Of a DNA stretch of 64,000 nt, positions 377-49,643 are shown one piece after another (the stretch's first letter is position 1; every line of letters begins with the position of its first letter). The DNA is taken from NCBI RefSeq assembly GCF_050320075.1, contig NZ_CP190018.1; one strand, written 5' to 3'. Under the pieces are notes generated by a model. It saw only the letters and a program-made list of their open reading frames with translations, did no database searches and was not told the DNA's origin. Made by a program: the position numbers and the translations under genes. The DNA comes from Escherichia coli (GTDB taxonomy: Bacteria > Pseudomonadota > Gammaproteobacteria > Enterobacterales > Enterobacteriaceae).

Positions 377-3300
377 ATGATTGAATGGATTATCCGGCGC
401 TCTGTCGCCAACCGTTTCCTGGTCATGATGGGGGCCCTGTTTCTCAGCATCTGGGGCACATGGACGATTATTAACACGCCTGTCGATGCCTTGCCTGACC
501 TGTCAGATGTGCAGGTCATTATCAAAACCAGCTATCCCGGCCAGGCCCCGCAGATTGTAGAAAACCAGGTCACCTATCCACTTACCACCACCATGCTGTC
601 CGTGCCTGGCGCAAAAACCGTGCGTGGTTTTTCACAGTTCGGTGATTCGTATGTGTATGTCATTTTTGAAGACGGCACCGATCTGTACTGGGCCCGTTCC
701 CGCGTGCTGGAGTACCTGAACCAGGTACAGGGAAAACTGCCCGCCGGTGTAAGTTCTGAAATCGGTCCGGACGCCACGGGGGTGGGCTGGATATTTGAAT
801 ATGCCCTTGTCGATCGCAGCGGAAAACACGACCTTTCAGAACTGCGTTCTCTGCAGGACTGGTTCCTGAAATTTGAGCTGAAAACCATCCCGAACGTGGC
901 TGAGGTCGCTTCGGTTGGCGGCGTGGTGAAACAGTACCAGATTCAGGTCAATCCGGTAAAATTGTCTCAGTATGGTATCAGCCTGCCCGAAGTGAAACAG
1001 GCCCTTGAATCGTCTAACCAGGAGGCCGGTGGCTCATCCGTTGAAATGGCCGAAGCTGAGTATATGGTCCGTGCCAGCGGTTATCTTCAGAGCATTGATG
1101 ATTTTAATAACATCGTCCTGAAAACAGGCGAGAACGGCGTGCCGGTTTATCTGCGGGATGTTGCCCGCGTGCAGACCGGGCCTGAAATGCGGCGTGGTAT
1201 TGCCGAGCTGAACGGCCAGGGCGAAGTCGCTGGCGGCGTGGTGATCCTGCGGTCGGGTAAAAATGCACGCGACGTTATCACGGCAGTGAGGGATAAACTT
1301 GAGACGCTGAAGGCCAGCCTGCCGGAAGGCGTTGAAATCGTGACCACCTACGATCGCAGCCAGCTCATCGACCGGGCGATTGATAACCTCAGTTCCAAAC
1401 TTCTGGAAGAGTTTATCGTGGTGGCCATCGTCTGTGCCCTGTTCCTGTGGCACGTACGTTCTGCCCTGGTGGCGATTATCTCTCTGCCGCTTGGTCTGTG
1501 TATCGCCTTTATCGTCATGCACTTCCAGGGACTGAACGCCAATATCATGTCGCTGGGAGGGATAGCGATTGCCGTCGGTGCGATGGTGGATGCCGCCATT
1601 GTGATGATTGAGAATGCGCATAAGCGGCTTGAGGAGTGGGATCATCAGCATCCGGGTGAGCAGATTGACAACGCCACCCGCTGGAAGGTGATTACCGATG
1701 CCTCCGTTGAAGTGGGACCCGCACTGTTTATCAGCCTGCTGATCATCACCCTGTCCTTTATTCCTATCTTTACCCTGGAAGGTCAGGAAGGACGTCTGTT
1801 TGGCCCGCTGGCATTCACGAAAACGTACTCCATGGCGGGCGCGGCCGCGCTGGCCATCATCGTCATTCCGATTCTGATGGGATTCTGGATCCGGGGGAAA
1901 ATTCCTGCAGAGACCAGTAACCCCCTGAACCGGGTACTGATCAAAGCGTATCATCCATTGCTGTTGCGGGTTCTCCACTGGCCAAAAACAACCCTGCTGG
2001 TTGCGGCCTTGTCCATTTTCACCGTTATCTGGCCGCTGAGCCAGGTGGGCGGTGAGTTTCTGCCGAAGATTAACGAGGGCGACCTGTTGTATATGCCGTC
2101 GACCCTGCCGGGTGTCTCTCCGGCTGAAGCTGCAGCGCTCCTGCAGACGACGGACAAGTTAATCAAAAGCGTTCCTGAAGTGGCCTCTGTATTTGGCAAG
2201 ACCGGTAAAGCAGAGACCGCCACGGATTCCGCACCGCTCGAAATGGTTGAAACCACGATCCAGCTCAAACCTGAGGATCAGTGGCGTCCAGGCATGACGA
2301 TTGACAAGATTATTGAAGAACTCGACAGGACCGTCCGTTTACCGGGGCTGGCAAACCTCTGGGTGCCGCCAATCCGTAACCGTATTGATATGCTCTCAAC
2401 CGGGATCAAAAGCCCGATAGGTATCAAGGTGTCCGGAACGGTTCTGTCCGATATCGATGCAACGGCGCAGAGTATCGAAGCGGTCGCCAAAACCGTACCC
2501 GGCGTAGTGTCTGCTCTCGCAGAGCGACTGGAAGGCGGGCGCTACATTGATGTGGATATCAACCGGGAAAAAGCCTCCCGCTACGGAATGACGGTGGGCG
2601 ATGTGCAGCTGTTCATCTCATCAGCCATCGGCGGCGCGACGGTAGGGGAAACGGTTGAAGGCGTGGCCCGGTACCCGATTAATATCCGCTATCCGCAGGA
2701 TTACCGGAACAGCCCGCAGGCCCTGAAACAGATGCCGATCCTGACCCCGATGAAGCAGCAGATCACGCTGGGCGATGTTGCGGATATTAAGGTCGTTTCC
2801 GGGCCGACTATGCTGAAAACGGAAAATGCCCGTCCAGCCAGCTGGATTTACATTGACGCGCGCGGCAGGGATATGGTGTCGGTGGTTAATGACATTAAAA
2901 CGGCGATCAGTCAGAAAGTGAAACTGAGACCGGGTACCAGCGTGTCATTCTCCGGACAGTTTGAACTGCTTGAGCATGCCAACAAGAAACTGAAGCTGAT
3001 GGTGCCGATGACGGTGATGATCATCTTCATCCTGTTGTATCTGGCATTCCGCCGGGTTGATGAAGCCCTGCTGATCCTGATGAGCCTGCCGTTCGCCCTG
3101 GTTGGCGGGATATGGTTCCTGTACTGGCAGGGCTTCCATATGTCTGTCGCAACCGGAACGGGGTTTATCGCTCTGGCCGGGGTGGCAGCAGAGTTTGGCG
3201 TGGTCATGCTGATGTATCTGCGTCATGCCATTGAAGCGCACCCGGAATTGTCCCGTAAAGAGACGTTCACACCGGAAGGCCTTGATGAAGCCCTCTATCA

Positions 3301-3523
3301 TGGTGCCGTACTGCGTGTCCGGCCGAAAGCCATGACCGTGGCGGTGATCATTGCGGGTCTGCTGCCAATACTCTGGGGAACCGGTGCAGGTTCAGAAGTC
3401 ATGAGCCGTATCGCGGCACCCATGATTGGTGGGATGATCACGGCTCCGCTGCTGTCCCTGTTCATTATTCCTGCCGCCTACAAATTAATCTGGCTGCGCA
3501 GACATAAAAAAAGCGTGTCCTGA
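377..3523 (+). CDS. silA: Heavy-metal (Ag+/Cu+) RND efflux pump, CusA/SilA family
   Basis: 1048-aa ORF of typical RND length and 12-TM architecture, N-terminus [16 protein letters not shown]; sits between adaptor gene and silG/silP. Confidence 0.92.
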
Positions 3524-3566
3524 ACCTGAAAGGGCACCCCCTGTGGGTGTCCTTCTTTACTGATTC

Positions 3567-3582
3567 ACCCTGACGTCAGGGT
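3567..3582. promoter_or_regulatory. Perfect 16-bp palindrome ACCCTGACGTCAGGGT followed by TTT, between silA and the DUF411 gene; terminator or operator candidate
   Basis: Read directly from sequence; function not established. Confidence 0.3.
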
Positions 3583-3609
3583 TTAAATCGATAATATACA
3601 GAGGTGAGT

Positions 3610-4050
3610 ATGAAAAAAGTGGTTCTGATGGCGCTGGCTCTCGGCCTTTCACTGCCCGCGATGGCGAGTGAAAAAGTGATTGATATGTACAAATCTGACA
3701 ACTGTGGCTGTTGTTCCCTGTGGGGCAAGGCGATGGAAAAAGACGGGTTTGAAGTACGAACTCACGTCATGAATGATCAGGCGCTGTCAGCCCTGAAAGA
3801 AAAGCATGCTATTCCTGCAGGGCTGCGAAGTTGTCATACCGCGGTTGCCGGTAATTTGATCATTGAAGGCCATGTGCCTGCGACAACGATACATAAGGCA
3901 ATGCAGTCTGGTTCAGGTATATACGGTTTCGCCACCCCCGGTATGCCAGCAGGAAGTCCTGGAATGGAGATGGGAGCCCGAAAAGAGGCTTACGATGTTA
4001 TCGCATTCTCACCGGATGGAAGTAAAAAAGTCTTCCAGCGAATCGAATAG
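3610..4050 (+). CDS. silG: Periplasmic metal-binding protein, DUF411 / ORF96 (SilG-like)
   Basis: Signal peptide, CxxC-like GCCS motif, position between silA and silP. ATG at 3610 preferred over the track's GTG at 3604 because GAGG lies just upstream. Confidence 0.75.
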   Translation: MKKVVLMALALGLSLPAMASEKVIDMYKSDNCGCCSLWGKAMEKDGFEVRTHVMNDQALSALKEKHAIPAGLRSCHTAVAGNLIIEGHVPATTIHKAMQSGSGIYGFATPGMPAGSPGMEMGARKEAYDVIAFSPDGSKKVFQRIE

Positions 4051-4176
4051 TCAGCGGAACGGCTGATAACGGGACGCCGGTAGCAGGCACTCCTGTGCCG
4101 GCGATATTCGTGGTAATCGCATCCATGACATACCCTGAAGACAGAAGATGCTTCGGTATGCATAAGGAGAGTTACT

Positions 4177-6624
4177 GTGAAAAATGACAATGCAGTGCAA
4201 CACAACAACCAGACTGCTTCTGAGCAGACATTATCCCCGGACGAGGGCCACGTATTGCATAAGGTGAGAGATCCCGTGTGCGGGATGGCCATCCTGCCCG
4301 ACAGGGCGCACAGCAGCATTCGATACCAGGACCATCAACTTTATTTCTGCTCCGCCAGCTGTGAGAGTAAATTTAAAGCCCATCCCGATCGTTATCTTAC
4401 CGAAGATGCCAGTGAACATTCCCATCACCATCACCACGATCATCACGAAGTCAGCCCTGATCAGATAAAACAGCCTCACCACCAGGCGGAAAAAGAGAAT
4501 TCTGAAGGTGTGTGGACATGTCCGATGCACCCGGAGATACGCCGCAGTGGTCCCGGAAGCTGTCCTGTCTGTGGAATGGCACTGGAGCCGCTCGTAGCTA
4601 CGGCATCCACGGGGCCGAGTGATGAACTTCACGACATGACAAGACGCTTCTGGCTGGGGTTGTTGCTGGCGTTTCCGGTTCTGGTACTCGAAATGGGATC
4701 TCATCTGTTTCCCGAGTTGAGGAATACAGTACCGCCACAGTACAACACATGGCTGCAGCTGCTTCTGGCCTCCCCTGTCGTGTTGTGGTGTGGCTGGCCA
4801 TTCTTCGCCCGGGCCGGAATGTCGTTACGTAACCGCTCCCTGAATATGTTTACCCTTGTTGCAATGGGGACCGGCGTAGCCTGGGTTTACAGCGTCATTG
4901 CAACCGTCTTCCCCTCCTGGTTTCCTGCATCGTTCAGAAACATGGATGGCCTGGTGGCCGTTTATTTTGAAGCCGCAGCAGTTATTACGGTGCTTGTTCT
5001 GCTGGGACAGGTTCTTGAGCTGCGGGCACGGGAACAAACCTCAGGCGCCATTACTGCGCTTCTGAACCTTGCCCCCAAAACCGCCAGACGGCTGGATCAT
5101 GACGGTCATGAAACGGATATTAATGCGGAAGATGTCCTGCCTGGCGATAAGCTCCGCATCAGACCTGGAGAGAGTATTCCGGTCGACGGTATCGTGATCG
5201 AAGGCAAAACAACCGTTGATGAATCGATGGTGACCGGGGAATCTATGCCGGTTACCAAAACGGAGGGTGACCCTGTCATCGGGGGGACCATTAATCAGAC
5301 AGGGAGTCTCATCATCCGTGCAGAGAAAGTCGGTGATGAAACAATGCTCTCACGAATTGTTCAGATGGTCGCTGATGCACAGCGTTCGCGTGCCCCCATC
5401 CAGAGAATGGCTGACAGCGTTTCAGGCTGGTTTGTTCCTCTGGTGATACTTATCGCGGTTGTTGCTTTCGTGATCTGGTCTGTCTGGGGGCCCGAGCCCA
5501 GGATGGCGCACGGTCTCATTGCGGCTGTGTCGGTCCTGATTATTGCCTGTCCCTGCGCGCTGGGGCTGGCCACGCCGATGTCGATAATGGTGGGGGTGGG
5601 CAAAGGAGCCCAGGCCGGGGTGTTAATCAGGAATGCCGAAGCCCTTGAGCGTCTTGAAAAAGTGGACACGCTGGTTGTCGACAAAACAGGCACGCTCACG
5701 GAAGGTTCGCCTACGGTGACAGGGATTATCAGTCTCAATCCGGGTGGGGAAACATCTCTTTTGCGTGTAACAGCCGCAGTGGAAAAAGGCTCGCAGCATC
5801 CGCTGGGTATGGCAGTAGTTAAAGCAGCACAGGAAAAGGGGATCGCAATACCCGCAGTCACTCATTTCGATGCACCGTCGGGTAAAGGTGTCTCAGGCGA
5901 TGTCGAAGGTCAACGGGTTGTTATTGGTAATGAACTGGCTATGCAGGAAAACAGTATAGTTATTGATAATCAAAAGGCCGTTGCGGATACGTTGCGGATG
6001 GAAGGCGCTACCGTTATCTATGTGGCCACAGACGGGGACCTTGCAGGCCTGATAGCTATCTCGGATCCCGTGAAAACAACCACGCCGGATGCGCTTAAAG
6101 CTTTGCGTCAGGCGGGGATCCGCATCGTTATGCTCACCGGGGATAACCAGCTTACTGCTGAAGCAGTCGCACGGAAACTGGGAATAGATGAGGTTGAAGC
6201 CGGAATTCTGCCGGATGGCAAAAAAGCAGTGATAACCCGACTGAAAGAGTCTGGCCATGTGGTTGCGATGGCCGGAGACGGTGTGAATGATGCCCCGGCG
6301 CTGGCAGCGGCTGACGTGGGTATAGCCATGGGAACGGGTACAGATGTGGCAATTGAAAGTGCCGGAGTCACCCTTCTCAAAGGCGACTTGATGATACTGA
6401 ACAGGGCCCGTCATCTGTCAGAGATCACCATGAAAAATATCCGTCAGAATCTGTTTTTTGCATTTATCTACAACGCACTTGGCGTGCCTGTGGCTGCAGG
6501 TCTGCTTTATCCTGTGTATGGAATACTGCTGTCGCCAGTTATTGCGGCGGCGGCCATGGCTCTTTCCTCCGTCAGCGTCATTGTGAATGCGTTGCGTCTG
6601 AAAAGTGTCAGGCTCGGGAAATAA
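4177..6624 (+). CDS. silP: Cu+/Ag+ exporting P1B-type ATPase
   Basis: His-rich N-terminal stretch (HHHHHDHHE), CPC metal-transduction motif, DKTGT phosphorylation motif, GDGVNDAP hinge; GTG start. Confidence 0.9.
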
Positions 6625-8472: not shown

Positions 8473-8488
8473 ATTACACGATTGTAAT
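8473..8488. promoter_or_regulatory. Inverted repeat ATTACA-N4-TGTAAT in the divergent pcoE-like/pcoA promoter region; candidate copper-box for PcoR/CusR-type regulators
   Basis: Perfect palindrome read from sequence in an AT-rich divergent intergenic region; assignment to a regulator is inferred. Confidence 0.4.
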
Positions 8489-8605
8489 GAATTTGTTTCT
8501 TAAGGTGTGCTAGATTCATTTCATTGTAAGTGGATGAACCAGTAATTTAATTTAAATCGGTTCTCGAATTCTGTCAGTAACCATACTTTAAATAAGGGAA
8601 TGCGC

Positions 8606-10423
8606 ATGCTGTTGAAAACGTCTCGACGAACTTTCCTGAAGGGGTTAACCCTCTCTGGCGTAGCCGGAAGTCTTGGCGTATGGAGTTTCAATGCGCGTTC
8701 CAGTCTGAGCCTGCCAGTTGCCGCATCCCTGCAGGGTACTCAGTTTGACCTGACCATTGGTGAAACGGCCGTCAATATCACGGGCAGTGAGCGTCAGGCC
8801 AAAACAATCAATGGAGGCCTGCCGGGGCCCGTTCTTCGCTGGAAAGAAGGTGACACCATTACCCTGAAGGTCAAAAACCGTCTTAATGAACAGACGTCCA
8901 TTCACTGGCACGGCATTATTCTTCCGGCCAATATGGATGGTGTTCCGGGGCTGAGTTTTATGGGCATAGAGCCTGATGATACCTACGTTTACACCTTTAA
9001 GGTTAAGCAGAACGGGACTTACTGGTACCACAGCCATTCCGGTCTGCAGGAACAGGAGGGGGTATACGGTGCCATTATCATCGATGCCGGGGAGCCAGAA
9101 CCGTTTACTTACGATCGTGAGCATGTGGTCATGTTGTCTGACTGGACCGATGAAAATCCTCACAGCCTGCTGAAAAAATTAAAAAAACAGTCGGATTACT
9201 ACAATTTCAATAAACCAACCGTTGGCTCTTTTTTCCGCGACGTGAATACCAGGGGGCTGTCAGCCACCATTGCCGATCGGAAAATGTGGGCTGAAATGAA
9301 AATGAATCCGACTGACCTCGCGGATGTCAGTGGCTACACCTACACCTATCTCATGAACGGGCAGGCCCCGCTGAAAAACTGGACCGGACTGTTCCGTCCC
9401 GGTGAAAAGATACGCTTACGGTTTATCAACGGCTCGGCAATGACCTATTTCGATATCCGTATCCCCGGGCTGAAAATGACGGTCGTGGCTGCAGATGGCC
9501 AGTATGTAAACCCGGTTACCGTTGACGAATTCAGGATTGCCGTTGCCGAAACCTATGATGTCATTGTGGAGCCTCAGGGTGAGGCCTATACCATCTTCGC
9601 ACAATCCATGGACAGGACCGGTTACGCTCGAGGGACACTGGCCACGAGAGAGGGGTTAAGTGCTGCCGTTCCCCCCCTCGATCCCCGTCCTCTGTTGACC
9701 ATGGAAGATATGGGTATGGGGGGAATGGGACATGATATGGCAGGAATGGACCACAGCCAGATGGGAGGCATGGATAACAGCGGAGAGATGATGTCTATGG
9801 ACGGTGCTGGCCTTCCGGATAGCGGGACATCCTCCGCGCCCATGGATCACAGCAGCATGGCCGGTATGGATCATTCCCGGATGGCCGGAATGCCGGGTAT
9901 GCAAAGTCATCCTGCGTCAGAAACGGATAACCCACTGGTTGATATGCAGGCGATGAGCGTCTCTCCGAAATTAAATGATCCGGGTATTGGTCTTCGAAAT
10001 AACGGAAGAAAGGTTCTCACGTACGCGGATTTGAAAAGCCGCTTTGAGGATCCTGACGGACGTGAACCTGGCCGTACCATAGAACTGCATTTAACCGGCC
10101 ACATGGAAAAGTTTGCCTGGTCATTTAACGGAATCAAGTTTTCAGATGCCGCACCGGTGCTGCTGAAATACGGTGAGCGGCTCAGGATCACGCTGATCAA
10201 CGATACCATGATGACTCACCCCATTCACCTGCATGGTATGTGGAGCGATCTGGAAGATGAAAACGGTAATTTCATGGTTCGTAAACACACAATAGATGTT
10301 CCCCCTGGTACAAAACGCAGTTACAGAGTGACAGCAGATGCGCTTGGCCGCTGGGCGTATCACTGCCATTTGCTCTATCACATGGAAATGGGAATGTTTC
10401 GTGAAGTCCGGGTGGAGGAATGA
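8606..10423 (+). CDS. pcoA: Multicopper oxidase PcoA
   Basis: Twin-arginine signal (SRRTFLKG), cupredoxin His motifs (HWHG, HCHLLYH), Met-rich insert ([16 protein letters not shown]). Start may be 8600 or 8606. Confidence 0.92.
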
Positions 10424-22467: not shown

Positions 22468-25199
22468 CGCATCTGGAACTGGTTCCCGTCCCGCCTGTCG
22501 CGCAACTGGCGGGCGTGAGCCAGCATTATGGAAAAACCGTTGCGCTGAACAATATCACTCTCGATATTCCGACCCGCTGCATGGTTGGGCTGATTGGTCC
22601 GGATGGCGTCGGGAAGTCGAGTTTATTGTCATTGATTTCCGGTGCTCGTGTCATTGAGCAGGGCAATGTGATCGTGCTGGGCGGCGATATGCGCGACCCG
22701 AAGCATCGACGCGACGTTTGCCCGCGCATCGCCTGGATGCCGCAGGGGCTGGGTAAAAACCTCTACCACACCTTGTCGGTGTATGAAAACGTCGATTTTT
22801 TCGCCCGCCTGTTCGGTCACGACAAAGCGGAGCGAGAAGTGCGAATTAATGAGCTGCTGACCAGCACCGGGTTAGCACCGTTTCGTGATCGTCCGGCAGG
22901 GAAACTCTCCGGCGGGATGAAGCAAAAACTGGGGCTGTGCTGTGCGTTAATCCACGACCCGGAACTGTTGATTCTTGATGAGCCAACAACGGGGGTTGAC
23001 CCGCTCTCCCGCGCCCAGTTCTGGGATCTGATCGACAGTATTCGCCAGCGGCAGAGCAATATGAGCGTGCTGGTCGCCACCGCCTACATGGAAGAGGCCG
23101 AACGCTTCGACTGGCTGGTAGCGATGAATGCCGGAGAAGTGCTGGCAACCGGCAGCGCCGAAGAGCTGCGGCAGCAAACGCAAAGCGCCACGCTGGAAGA
23201 AGCATTTATAAATCTGTTACCGCAAGCGCAACGCCAGGCGCATCAGGCGGTAGTGATCCCACCATATCAACCTGAAAACGCAGAGATTGCCATCGAAGCG
23301 CGCGATCTGACCATGCGTTTTGGTTCCTTCGTTGCCGTTGATCACGTCAATTTCCGCATTCCACGCGGGGAGATTTTTGGTTTTCTTGGTTCGAACGGCT
23401 GCGGTAAATCCACCACCATGAAAATGCTTACCGGATTGCTGCCCGCCAGCGAAGGTGAGGCGTGGCTGTTCGGGCAACCGGTTGATCCAAAAGATATCGA
23501 TACTCGCCGTCGGGTAGGCTATATGTCGCAGGCGTTTTCGCTCTATAACGAACTCACCGTGCGGCAAAACCTTGAGTTACATGCCCGTTTGTTTCACATC
23601 CCGGAAGCGGAAATTCCCGCGCGAGTGGCTGAAATGAGCGAGCGTTTTAAGCTCAACGACGTTGAAGATGTTCTGCCGGAGTCATTACCGCTCGGCATTC
23701 GCCAGCGGCTTTCGCTGGCGGTGGCGGTGATTCATCGCCCAGAGATGTTAATCCTCGATGAGCCTACTTCTGGTGTCGATCCGGTGGCGAGGGATATGTT
23801 CTGGCAGTTGATGGTCGATCTCTCGCGTCAGGACAAAGTGACTATCTTCATCTCCACCCACTTTATGAACGAAGCGGAACGTTGCGACCGTATCTCACTG
23901 ATGCACGCCGGAAAAGTGCTCGCCAGCGGTACACCGCAGGAGTTGGTTGAGAAACGCGGAGCCGCCAGTCTGGAAGAGGCATTTATCGCCTATTTGCAGG
24001 AAGCGGCAGGGCAGAGCAGCGAAGCCGAAGCGCCGCCCGTGGTACACGACGCCACCCACGCGCCGCGTCAGGGATTTAGTCTGCGCCGTCTGTTTAGCTA
24101 CAGCCGTCGCGAAGCACTGGAACTGCGACGCGATCCGGTACGTTCGGCGCTGGCGCTGATGGGAACGGTGATCCTGATGCTGATAATGGGTTACGGCATC
24201 AGTATGGATGTGGAAAACCTGCGCTTTGCGGTGCTTGACCGCGACCAGACCGTCAGTAGCCAGGCGTGGACGCTCAATCTCTCCGGTTCCCGTTACTTTA
24301 TCGAACAACCACCGCTCACCAGTTATGACGAACTGGATCGCCGGATGCGTGCGGGCGATATCACGGTGGCGATTGAGATCCCACCCAATTTCGGGCGCGA
24401 TATCGCGCGTGGTACGCCTGTGGAACTCGGTGTCTGGATCGACGGTGCGATGCCCAGTCGTGCCGAAACGGCAAAAGGTTACGTGCAGGCTATGCACCAG
24501 AGCTGGCTACAGGATGTGGCGAGCCGACAATCCACACCCTCCAGCCAAAGCGGGCTGATGAACATTGAGACGCGCTATCGCTATAACCCGGACGTAAAAA
24601 GCCTGCCAGCGATTGTTCCGGCGGTGATCCCGCTTCTGCTGATGATGATCCCGTCAATGCTAAGCGCCCTTAGCGTGGTGCGGGAAAAAGAGTTGGGGTC
24701 GATTATCAACCTTTACGTGACTCCCACCACCCGTAGCGAATTTTTGCTTGGCAAACAGCTACCGTACATCGCGCTGGGGATGCTGAACTTTTTCCTGCTC
24801 TGCGGCCTGTCGGTGTTTGTGTTTGGCGTACCGCATAAAGGCAGTTTCCTGACGCTCACCCTGGCGGCGCTGCTGTATATCATCATCGCCACCGGAATGG
24901 GGCTGCTGATCTCCACCTTTATGAAAAGCCAGATTGCCGCTATTTTCGGTACGGCGATTATCACGTTGATCCCGGCGACACAGTTTTCCGGGATGATTGA
25001 TCCGGTAGCTTCGCTGGAAGGTCCAGGACGCTGGATCGGCGAGGTTTACCCGACCAGTCATTTTCTGACTATTGCCCGCGGGACGTTCTCGAAGGCGCTG
25101 GATTTGACTGATTTGTGGCAACTTTTTATCCCGTTGCTGATAGCCATCCCGCTGGTGATGGGCTTAAGCATCCTGCTGCTGAAAAAACAGGAGGGATGA
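22464..25199 (+). CDS. rbbA: Ribosome-associated ATPase RbbA (two ABC ATPase domains fused to a permease domain)
   Basis: 911 aa; two Walker A motifs ([18 protein letters not shown]) and LSGG signatures; C-terminal membrane domain. Confidence 0.92.
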
Positions 25200-37036: not shown

Positions 37037-39839
<2,803 letters not shown>

Positions 39840-49610: not shown

Positions 49611-49643
49611 AGGATACACTCTGGAGTCGACTCCAGAGTCAAG
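49611..49643 (-). promoter_or_regulatory. zntA promoter with ZntR (MerR-type) operator: TTGACT, dyad ACTCTGGAGTCGACTCCAGAGT in a long spacer, then TATCCT
   Basis: Palindrome and hexamers read on the minus strand just upstream of zntA. Confidence 0.8.

Follow-up and report, generated by a model that had tools for sequence, protein, structure and literature searches.

We interpret the perfect 16-bp palindrome between silA and silG as encoding a small RNA stem-loop in a transcribed spacer of the silCFBAGP operon, most likely with an mRNA-structural role, and give this reading a probability of about one half. The stem-loop, hereafter hairpin 2, is the type A allele of a fast-evolving hairpin located ~25–30 nt 5′ of the silG start, type A being the allele spread by the common sil island and its plasmids. 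It is neither a sequence-specific protein site nor an efficient terminator. As an element it is ordinary, of a very common type though not itself described before, and would not surprise a specialist. For the silA–silG interval, the analysis reveals no hidden regulator site or operon boundary and supports silCFBAGP as one SilRS-controlled unit; for annotation, no terminator is to be placed between the two genes.

The palindrome and its spacer

ACCCTGACGTCAGGGT occupies positions 3567–3582 (+) of the window (the whole 64-kb stretch of DNA that was analysed) and is, as an earlier note on this DNA had claimed, a perfect 8+8 dyad able to form a hairpin. Positions 3560–3612 read ...CTGATTC-ACCCTGACGTCAGGGT-TTAAATCGATAATATACAGAGGTGAGT-ATG. 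The gene context assigned earlier (silA, the DUF411 gene silG, and silP) is correct; the silG ATG is at 3610, with a measured gap of 27 nt from the palindrome instead of ~28 bp, and the spacer, put at 90 bp, measures 86 nt from the silA stop (3523) to that ATG. The TTT described as following the dyad is present at 3582–3584, but its first T is the palindrome's last base, and the tail after the palindrome (TTAAATCG) is not a real U-tract. The features of the region, all on the plus strand, are:

377..3523 (+), silA, RND pump permease, 1048 aa (ORF; annotation of matching records)
3530..3554 (+), hairpin 1, 10-bp GC-rich stem-loop AAGGGCACCC-CCUGU-GGGUGUCCUU, then CUUUAC (fold, RNAalifold)
3567..3582 (+), hairpin 2, the palindrome in its type A allele, stem 3567–3572/3577–3582, loop ACGU at 3573–3576
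3583..3609 (+), A/T-rich tail and silG translation-initiation region, TTA.ATCG.TAA..TAC.GAGGTGAGT (invariant alignment columns)
3610..4050 (+), silG (ORF105), DUF411, CopG-like periplasmic CxxC protein, 146 aa (translation; PF04214 homologs; PMC4356207)
4075..4103 (+), stem-loop in the silG–silP spacer, CGCCGGUAGCAGGCACUCCUGUGCCGGCG (−20.2 kcal/mol, z = −3.7)
4177..6624 (+), silP, P-type ATPase, last large gene of the unit (ORF; annotation in matching records); the start codon at 4177 is provisional, R478 silP being annotated as slightly longer than this ORF

The ATG at 3610 is the start annotated by RefSeq in orthologs, and the silG Shine-Dalgarno sequence GAGG lies at 3601–3604. The invariant columns of 3583–3609 come from two alignments (A1 and A2), and the GATAA..GAGG..ATG motif is kept in the type C loci described below as well.

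About 2,760 plasmids carry sil loci that match the region, R478 being the best match (99.7%). The sil/pco island, a widespread silver and copper resistance determinant, was present in 834 of 5,426 complete E. coli genomes, in most cases as a chromosomal locus; several of these were 100% identical to window positions 3440–3760, which cover the spacer region. To the right, the window continues into E. coli chromosome around zntA, and the island analysed here is therefore chromosomal.

The earlier note considered a perfect 16-mer unlikely by chance in such a spacer. The naive expectation for the 86-nt spacer alone is indeed ~0.0016, but the full 64 kb had been scanned, and a stretch of that size should hold ~1.2 perfect 16-mers, which leaves the palindrome without significance of its own. 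Dinucleotide-shuffled versions of the window had on average 1.16 perfect palindromes with a half-length of at least 8 per 64 kb, and 67.5% of the shuffles contained one or more; the window itself holds two, that at 3567–3582 and a 22-bp one in the zntA promoter region. The former is unusual only in its intergenic location. Part of its perfection comes from a self-complementary 4-nt loop (ACGT), a 1/16 chance, by which a stem of 6 bp reads as a "perfect 16-mer". The 22-bp palindrome, ACTCTGGAGTCGACTCCAGAGT at 49618–49639, is the only longer one in the window and lies in an intergenic part of the E. coli chromosome (98% identity); zntA is annotated in the surrounding 2.5 kb of matching records, and we take the palindrome to be the known ZntR (MerR-family) operator within the zntA promoter. 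A 14-bp perfect palindrome, GCGCGATATCGCGC, occurs twice, at 24395–24408 and 38977–38990 (~14.6 kb apart), and may belong to a repeated element or a duplicated gene.

At the RNA level, the silA–silG spacer folds as two adjacent stem-loops. Hairpin 2 has only 6 bp (ACCCUG/CAGGGU, four of them G-C pairs, loop ACGU) and folds with −9.0 kcal/mol (z = −3.15). Hairpin 1, which the earlier note did not mention, starts 7 nt past the silA stop and is stronger (−16.5 kcal/mol, z = −3.65); RNAalifold retained it with compensatory changes at three pairs, and a strong stem stands at its position in every folded lineage that retains silA. It is a better candidate than hairpin 2 for a silA 3′ stabiliser or a weak terminator. 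The stem at 4075–4103 lies just past the silG stop and, with hairpins 1 and 2, brackets silG; types B and C carry a stem of different sequence at the same place. RNAalifold also kept a 5-bp stem (GACAU...GUGUC) over the last silA codons (3503–3521), which is nearly invariant and hence uninformative. A search with the covariance models of Rfam 15 gave no match in the spacer; its one hit, to CRISPR-DR20 (E = 3.5), lay within silA and is attributed to chance. Pairing of the CCUG after the silA stop with the silG Shine-Dalgarno sequence, a candidate translational-coupling switch, was rejected; among the minimum-energy folds, this long-range pairing was present for the window and Klebsiella alleles only and absent for Enterobacter and type B.

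Alleles in orthologous sil loci

Ortholog spacers were collected over a range of SilG identities from 98% to 62%, using protein homologs and their contigs. Every full-length locus had the RND pump gene, a spacer of 85–102 nt and the DUF411 gene, and nearly all had a P-type ATPase gene downstream. The gene 3′ of silG varies: a Cronobacter dublinensis-type locus (L014) has a multicopper oxidase in the place of silP, and in L015 and L024/L025 the P-type ATPase is truncated or split, perhaps through silP pseudogenisation. The conservation check that the earlier note had proposed turned out negative, the 16-mer being replaced or degraded at 62–90% SilG identity. This absence of the palindrome from orthologous loci, named there as the refuting observation, refutes a sequence-specific role. 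The alleles found at the hairpin 2 position, with their carriers and stem lengths, are:

Type A, ACCCTG-ACGT-CAGGGT: window, Klebsiella, Enterobacter; 6 bp
Type B, (T)CGTGT-GAACG-ACACG(G/A): Pantoea septica, an S. Pomona plasmid, C. dublinensis, three metagenome contigs; 5–6 bp
A/B intermediate, GCCCGAACGTCAGGG: L018/L019/L029, and L032 in type-A-like flanks; 4 bp
Degraded B, CGTG...CACG: C. sakazakii; 4 bp
Degraded A, CCTG...CAGG: L013; 4 bp
Type C, TCTGCCCGGAT-AACAG-(G)ATCCGGCAGA: Serratia microhaemolytica and relatives; 9–11 bp
Type C′, CGGAT...ATCCG: Yersinia; 5 bp
Type D, CGTCC...GGACG: L024; 5 bp

Structure, not sequence, recurs at this position, with a stem formed in unrelated sequence versions; four other alleles have decayed to 4–5 bp, and the A/B intermediate was seen in two sequence backgrounds. 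A structure that recurs without a conserved sequence argues against a sequence-specific operator. Within the type C family, the RNAalifold consensus included hairpin 2, with double compensatory changes at 3 of the 10 stem pairs, and the family contains G·U pairs that are workable in plus-strand RNA only. RNAalifold did not recover hairpin 2 in the A/B/D family. Types A and B are in-register homologs that differ at 8 of 21 positions and pair in different registers, which is why A/B shows no column-wise covariation. When stability was tested by shuffling a 37-nt hairpin 2 zone, z ranged from −2.3 to −3.0 for type A and from −1.9 to −3.4 for type C, with −2.1 for type D; type B (−0.9 to −1.85) was not significantly more stable than its shuffles, and degraded alleles lay between +0.15 (C. 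sakazakii) and −1.1. Constraint on hairpin 2 is soft, since several natural alleles lack most of the stem.

One locus (L023) is a natural deletion that has lost silCFBA and half of hairpin 1, leaving hairpin 2 and the silG initiation region intact; a SilR-box promoter (AAAATGACAGTTTTGTCAT; AAAATGACAACATTGTCAT in R478) and the silC start are fused to the distal spacer. By comparison, the 3′ region of cusA in E. coli K-12, whose paralogous operon has neither silG nor silP, forms a GGGCAC/GTGCCC stem and has no hairpin 2 analogue. These two arrangements, cusA being a single comparison, are consistent with a hairpin 2 that travels with silG. The deletion lies at 1120–1510 of its contig (Logan SRR16693548 contig 45), where silRS-like genes and the SilR-box promoter are joined through a silC′ remnant to silG; both an RND pump and silP are missing from the locus, which has a TorS-like sensor gene downstream.

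The same alleles bear on whether the hairpin has any function of its own. The palindrome could be a chance or relic inverted repeat in a tolerant spacer, its conserved look produced by the recent horizontal spread of one sil allele. The ~1.2 palindromes expected per window fit this explanation. So does the 33-mer that spans the palindrome: 2,534 of 2,727 plasmids share it unchanged, an invariance that reflects recent clonal spread of one allele rather than selection and is uninformative about constraint. Alleles with weak stems persist (C. sakazakii, L013, L018/L029, L032), and the A/B/D family lacks a consensus hairpin. Deletion of silG or silP leaves the silver MIC unchanged (PMC4356207), so selection on fine-tuning may be weak, which would match the decayed alleles. 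Against neutrality, at least four unrelated sequence versions pair into a stem equally far from the silG start, compensatory changes occur in the type C family, the deletion derivative retains the hairpin, and z-scores are negative in most lineages. We consider the neutral explanation rather unlikely.

Transcription across the spacer

The earlier note had suggested a short terminator separating silCFBA from silG and silP. Hairpin 2 does not behave as one: its 6-bp stem is followed by UUAAAUCG, the type A allele was not flagged as a terminator, and read density is not lost beyond it. The stem itself has the form expected of an intrinsic terminator (GC-rich, at least 5 bp, loop of 3–8 nt), but the tail TTAAATCG falls short of 5 T among the 8 nt after the stem. 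A scan of window positions 3300–4300 found no plus-strand terminator-like site, the dominant Klebsiella type A allele and type C were likewise unflagged, and among the alleles scanned only type B was flagged, by a loose pattern. Type C has no T-run or U-tail behind either hairpin.

Expression data point in the same direction. Reviews citing Silver 2003 treat silCFBAGP as one transcription unit (PMC5008109, PMC8085274), and copper RNA-seq of Salmonella SGI-4 showed silG and silP induced together with silCFBA (PMC7716197). At 30 min, log2 fold changes were 6.65 for silA, 6.89 for orf105/silG and 5.74 for silP; at 60 min they were 5.77, 4.80 and 3.47, respectively (PMC7716197). From the 30-min set we calculated RNA density as DESeq2 baseMean divided by gene length, a measure of steady-state rather than nascent RNA in a strain different from that of the window and known to match it in spacer length (86 nt) only. 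The values along SGI-4 (PMC7716197) are:

silC: 10.9k reads per kb
silF: 31.5k reads per kb
silB: 19.7k reads per kb
silA: 10.1k reads per kb
silG: 42.4k reads per kb
silP: 12.0k reads per kb
DUF2933: 15.3k reads per kb

The RNA density of silP is not below that of silA, and therefore neither the silA–silG nor the silG–silP spacer contains an efficient terminator; transcription reads through. Across SGI-4 (AOL22_23525 to AOL22_23555), silF and silG have 3–4 times the read density of silC, silA and silP. The fold induction of silP is lower than that of silA, suggesting higher basal expression or an extra weak promoter 5′ of silP.

A milder effect is conceivable, in which hairpins 2 and 1 act in tandem as a weak intrinsic terminator or attenuator that stops or pauses some polymerases after silA and lowers silG and silP relative to silCFBA. 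Hairpin 2 resembles such elements in its GC-containing stem, 4-nt loop and following T/A-rich sequence (the tail TTTA.ATCG is conserved in types A, B and D), and in standing directly 3′ of a stronger post-stop hairpin that is itself preceded by an A-run and followed by CUUCUUU. The type B allele fits the loose pattern used for terminators, and the 60-min induction declines along the operon from silA through silG to silP. It differs from known terminators and attenuators in a U-tract that is too short and interrupted (UUAAAUCG), in the failure of the scan to flag either type A allele (window or dominant Klebsiella), and in the missing U-tail after both hairpins of type C. The genes beyond it are co-induced and equally abundant, with silG and silP RNA density not below that of silA. 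Attenuation of this kind is unlikely.

The other function proposed earlier was that of a regulator binding site, and this is contradicted by an unconserved sequence, the lack of a sigma-70-like promoter and of a CusR/SilR box, and the lack of a second copy. More specifically, the palindrome could be an operator to which a regulator binds as a dimer, or it could belong to an internal Cu/Ag-responsive promoter for silG and silP. Operators are typically perfect dyads, the window's sole other long palindrome lies in the zntA promoter region, and the half-site core TGAC/GTCA resembles copper-box half-sites. An internal inducible promoter could also produce the ~4-fold excess of silG over silA RNA density. 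The dyad shares its perfection, its location in a metal-resistance locus and its TGAC/GTCA core with the CusR/SilR/PcoR copper box (AAAATGACAAnnTTGTCAT) and with MerR-family operators such as the ZntR site of zntA. Unlike these, it has the wrong half-site spacing, no promoter and no conservation among orthologs, and it has no further copy at the silC, silE or pco promoters. Its sequence varies among orthologs that have near-identical SilRS-type systems, and the G·U pairs of other alleles fit RNA, not DNA. No −35/−10 pair was found in any lineage scanned: a sigma-70-only scan gave no promoter in window positions 3300–4300 or in three other lineages. The copper box (ATGACAAnnTTGTCAT) has no match in 3524–3609, and matches elsewhere at 8473 and 14833, in pco promoter regions, and in the R478 silC promoter. 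The 16-mer has no second copy in the 64-kb window at up to 3 mismatches, and its core is unique within the 26-kb sil-pco region of R478, where the other matches have 3 mismatches and lie inside coding sequence only. An operator or internal promoter is accordingly very improbable.

Several promoter candidates picked out around the spacer were rejected. Two −10 candidates found by eye, GATAAT and TAATAT (3590–3597), lack a −35, and their transcription start would fall in the conserved Shine-Dalgarno sequence. In a MerR-type arrangement TTCACC-20-GATAAT, with the dyad beginning at position 4 of the −35 as in copA and zntA, the dyad is on inspection off-centre and too short; a 16-bp dyad starting in the −35-like hexamer TTCACC leaves an off-centre spacer of 14 or 20 bp, which is not MerR-type geometry. 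A sigma-54-like GGGCAC-N5-GTGG in hairpin 1 is, also by inspection, not conserved in other lineages. A REP/BIME-type element would have many dispersed copies of a shared consensus, and the palindrome is present as a single copy in the 64 kb (at up to 3 mismatches). A literature search for the palindrome sequence found no paper, and searches for CopG/DUF411 and for mapping of sil transcription start sites found nothing. Elsewhere in the island, ATTACACGATTGTAAT (8473–8488) is a copper-box-like dyad 5′ of a pcoA-like ORF (8600–10423), and GTGACAAAATTGTCAT (14833–14848) is a second one that, by synteny with R478, lies 5′ of pcoE; both look like real two-component regulator sites of the island.

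A proposed role in segment stability

Classic cases of intercistronic stem-loops that set the stability of mRNA segments are the malE–malF REP, the Rhodobacter pufBA 3′ hairpins and papBA processing, and 5′-terminal stem-loops such as that of the ompA 5′ UTR slow the entry of RNase E. Hairpin 2 shares with the intercistronic group a transcribed, intra-operon location (silCFBAGP is treated as one unit, silG and silP are co-induced, and synteny with a spacer of 85–102 nt holds in every full-length locus), a small and stable stem, a structure that recurs when the sequence does not, and flanked short genes, silG and silF, that exceed the long pump genes in RNA density. It differs in being short (6 bp), dispensable in some lineages and not a repeated REP element, and its role here is predicted. 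By analogy with these systems, the mRNA-structural role of hairpin 2 is probably one in stability or processing.

In the proposed mechanism, hairpin 1, hairpin 2 and the stem after silG would mark off the silG segment and protect it. Cleavage by an endonuclease within the A/U-rich linker would leave hairpin 2 as a 5′-proximal stem, which would slow RNase E entry, and the remaining stems would block 3′-exonucleases, giving segments of one transcript unequal stability. Hairpin 2 may in addition contribute mild attenuation or pausing at most. Strong stems follow both silF (in R478) and silG, two short chaperone genes with the highest RNA density of the operon. The excess of silG RNA is shared with the short gene silF and may in part be a counting or short-gene effect; this effect, weak attenuation and plain neutrality are possible alternatives to a stability role.

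A more specific version is put forward tentatively, as possible rather than likely: hairpin 2 may form the 5′ boundary of a processed, unusually stable silG message, released from the silCFBAGP transcript by a cut in the A/U-rich linker that separates hairpins 1 and 2 and closed at the 3′ end by the 4075–4103 stem, with the same design for silF. If such a discrete message exists, the cell would make several-fold more periplasmic CopG-like protein than pumps. The stems flanking silF and silG offer a cheap, testable hypothesis on protein ratios within the operon. Further intercistronic structure is present in the R478 silF–silB spacer (L027 6323–6435), where a large composite stem-loop (UGUGCGCCUG...CAGGCGCAUA, with the inner stem CAUUCACAUA/UAUGUGUGAG) is followed by a U-rich run.
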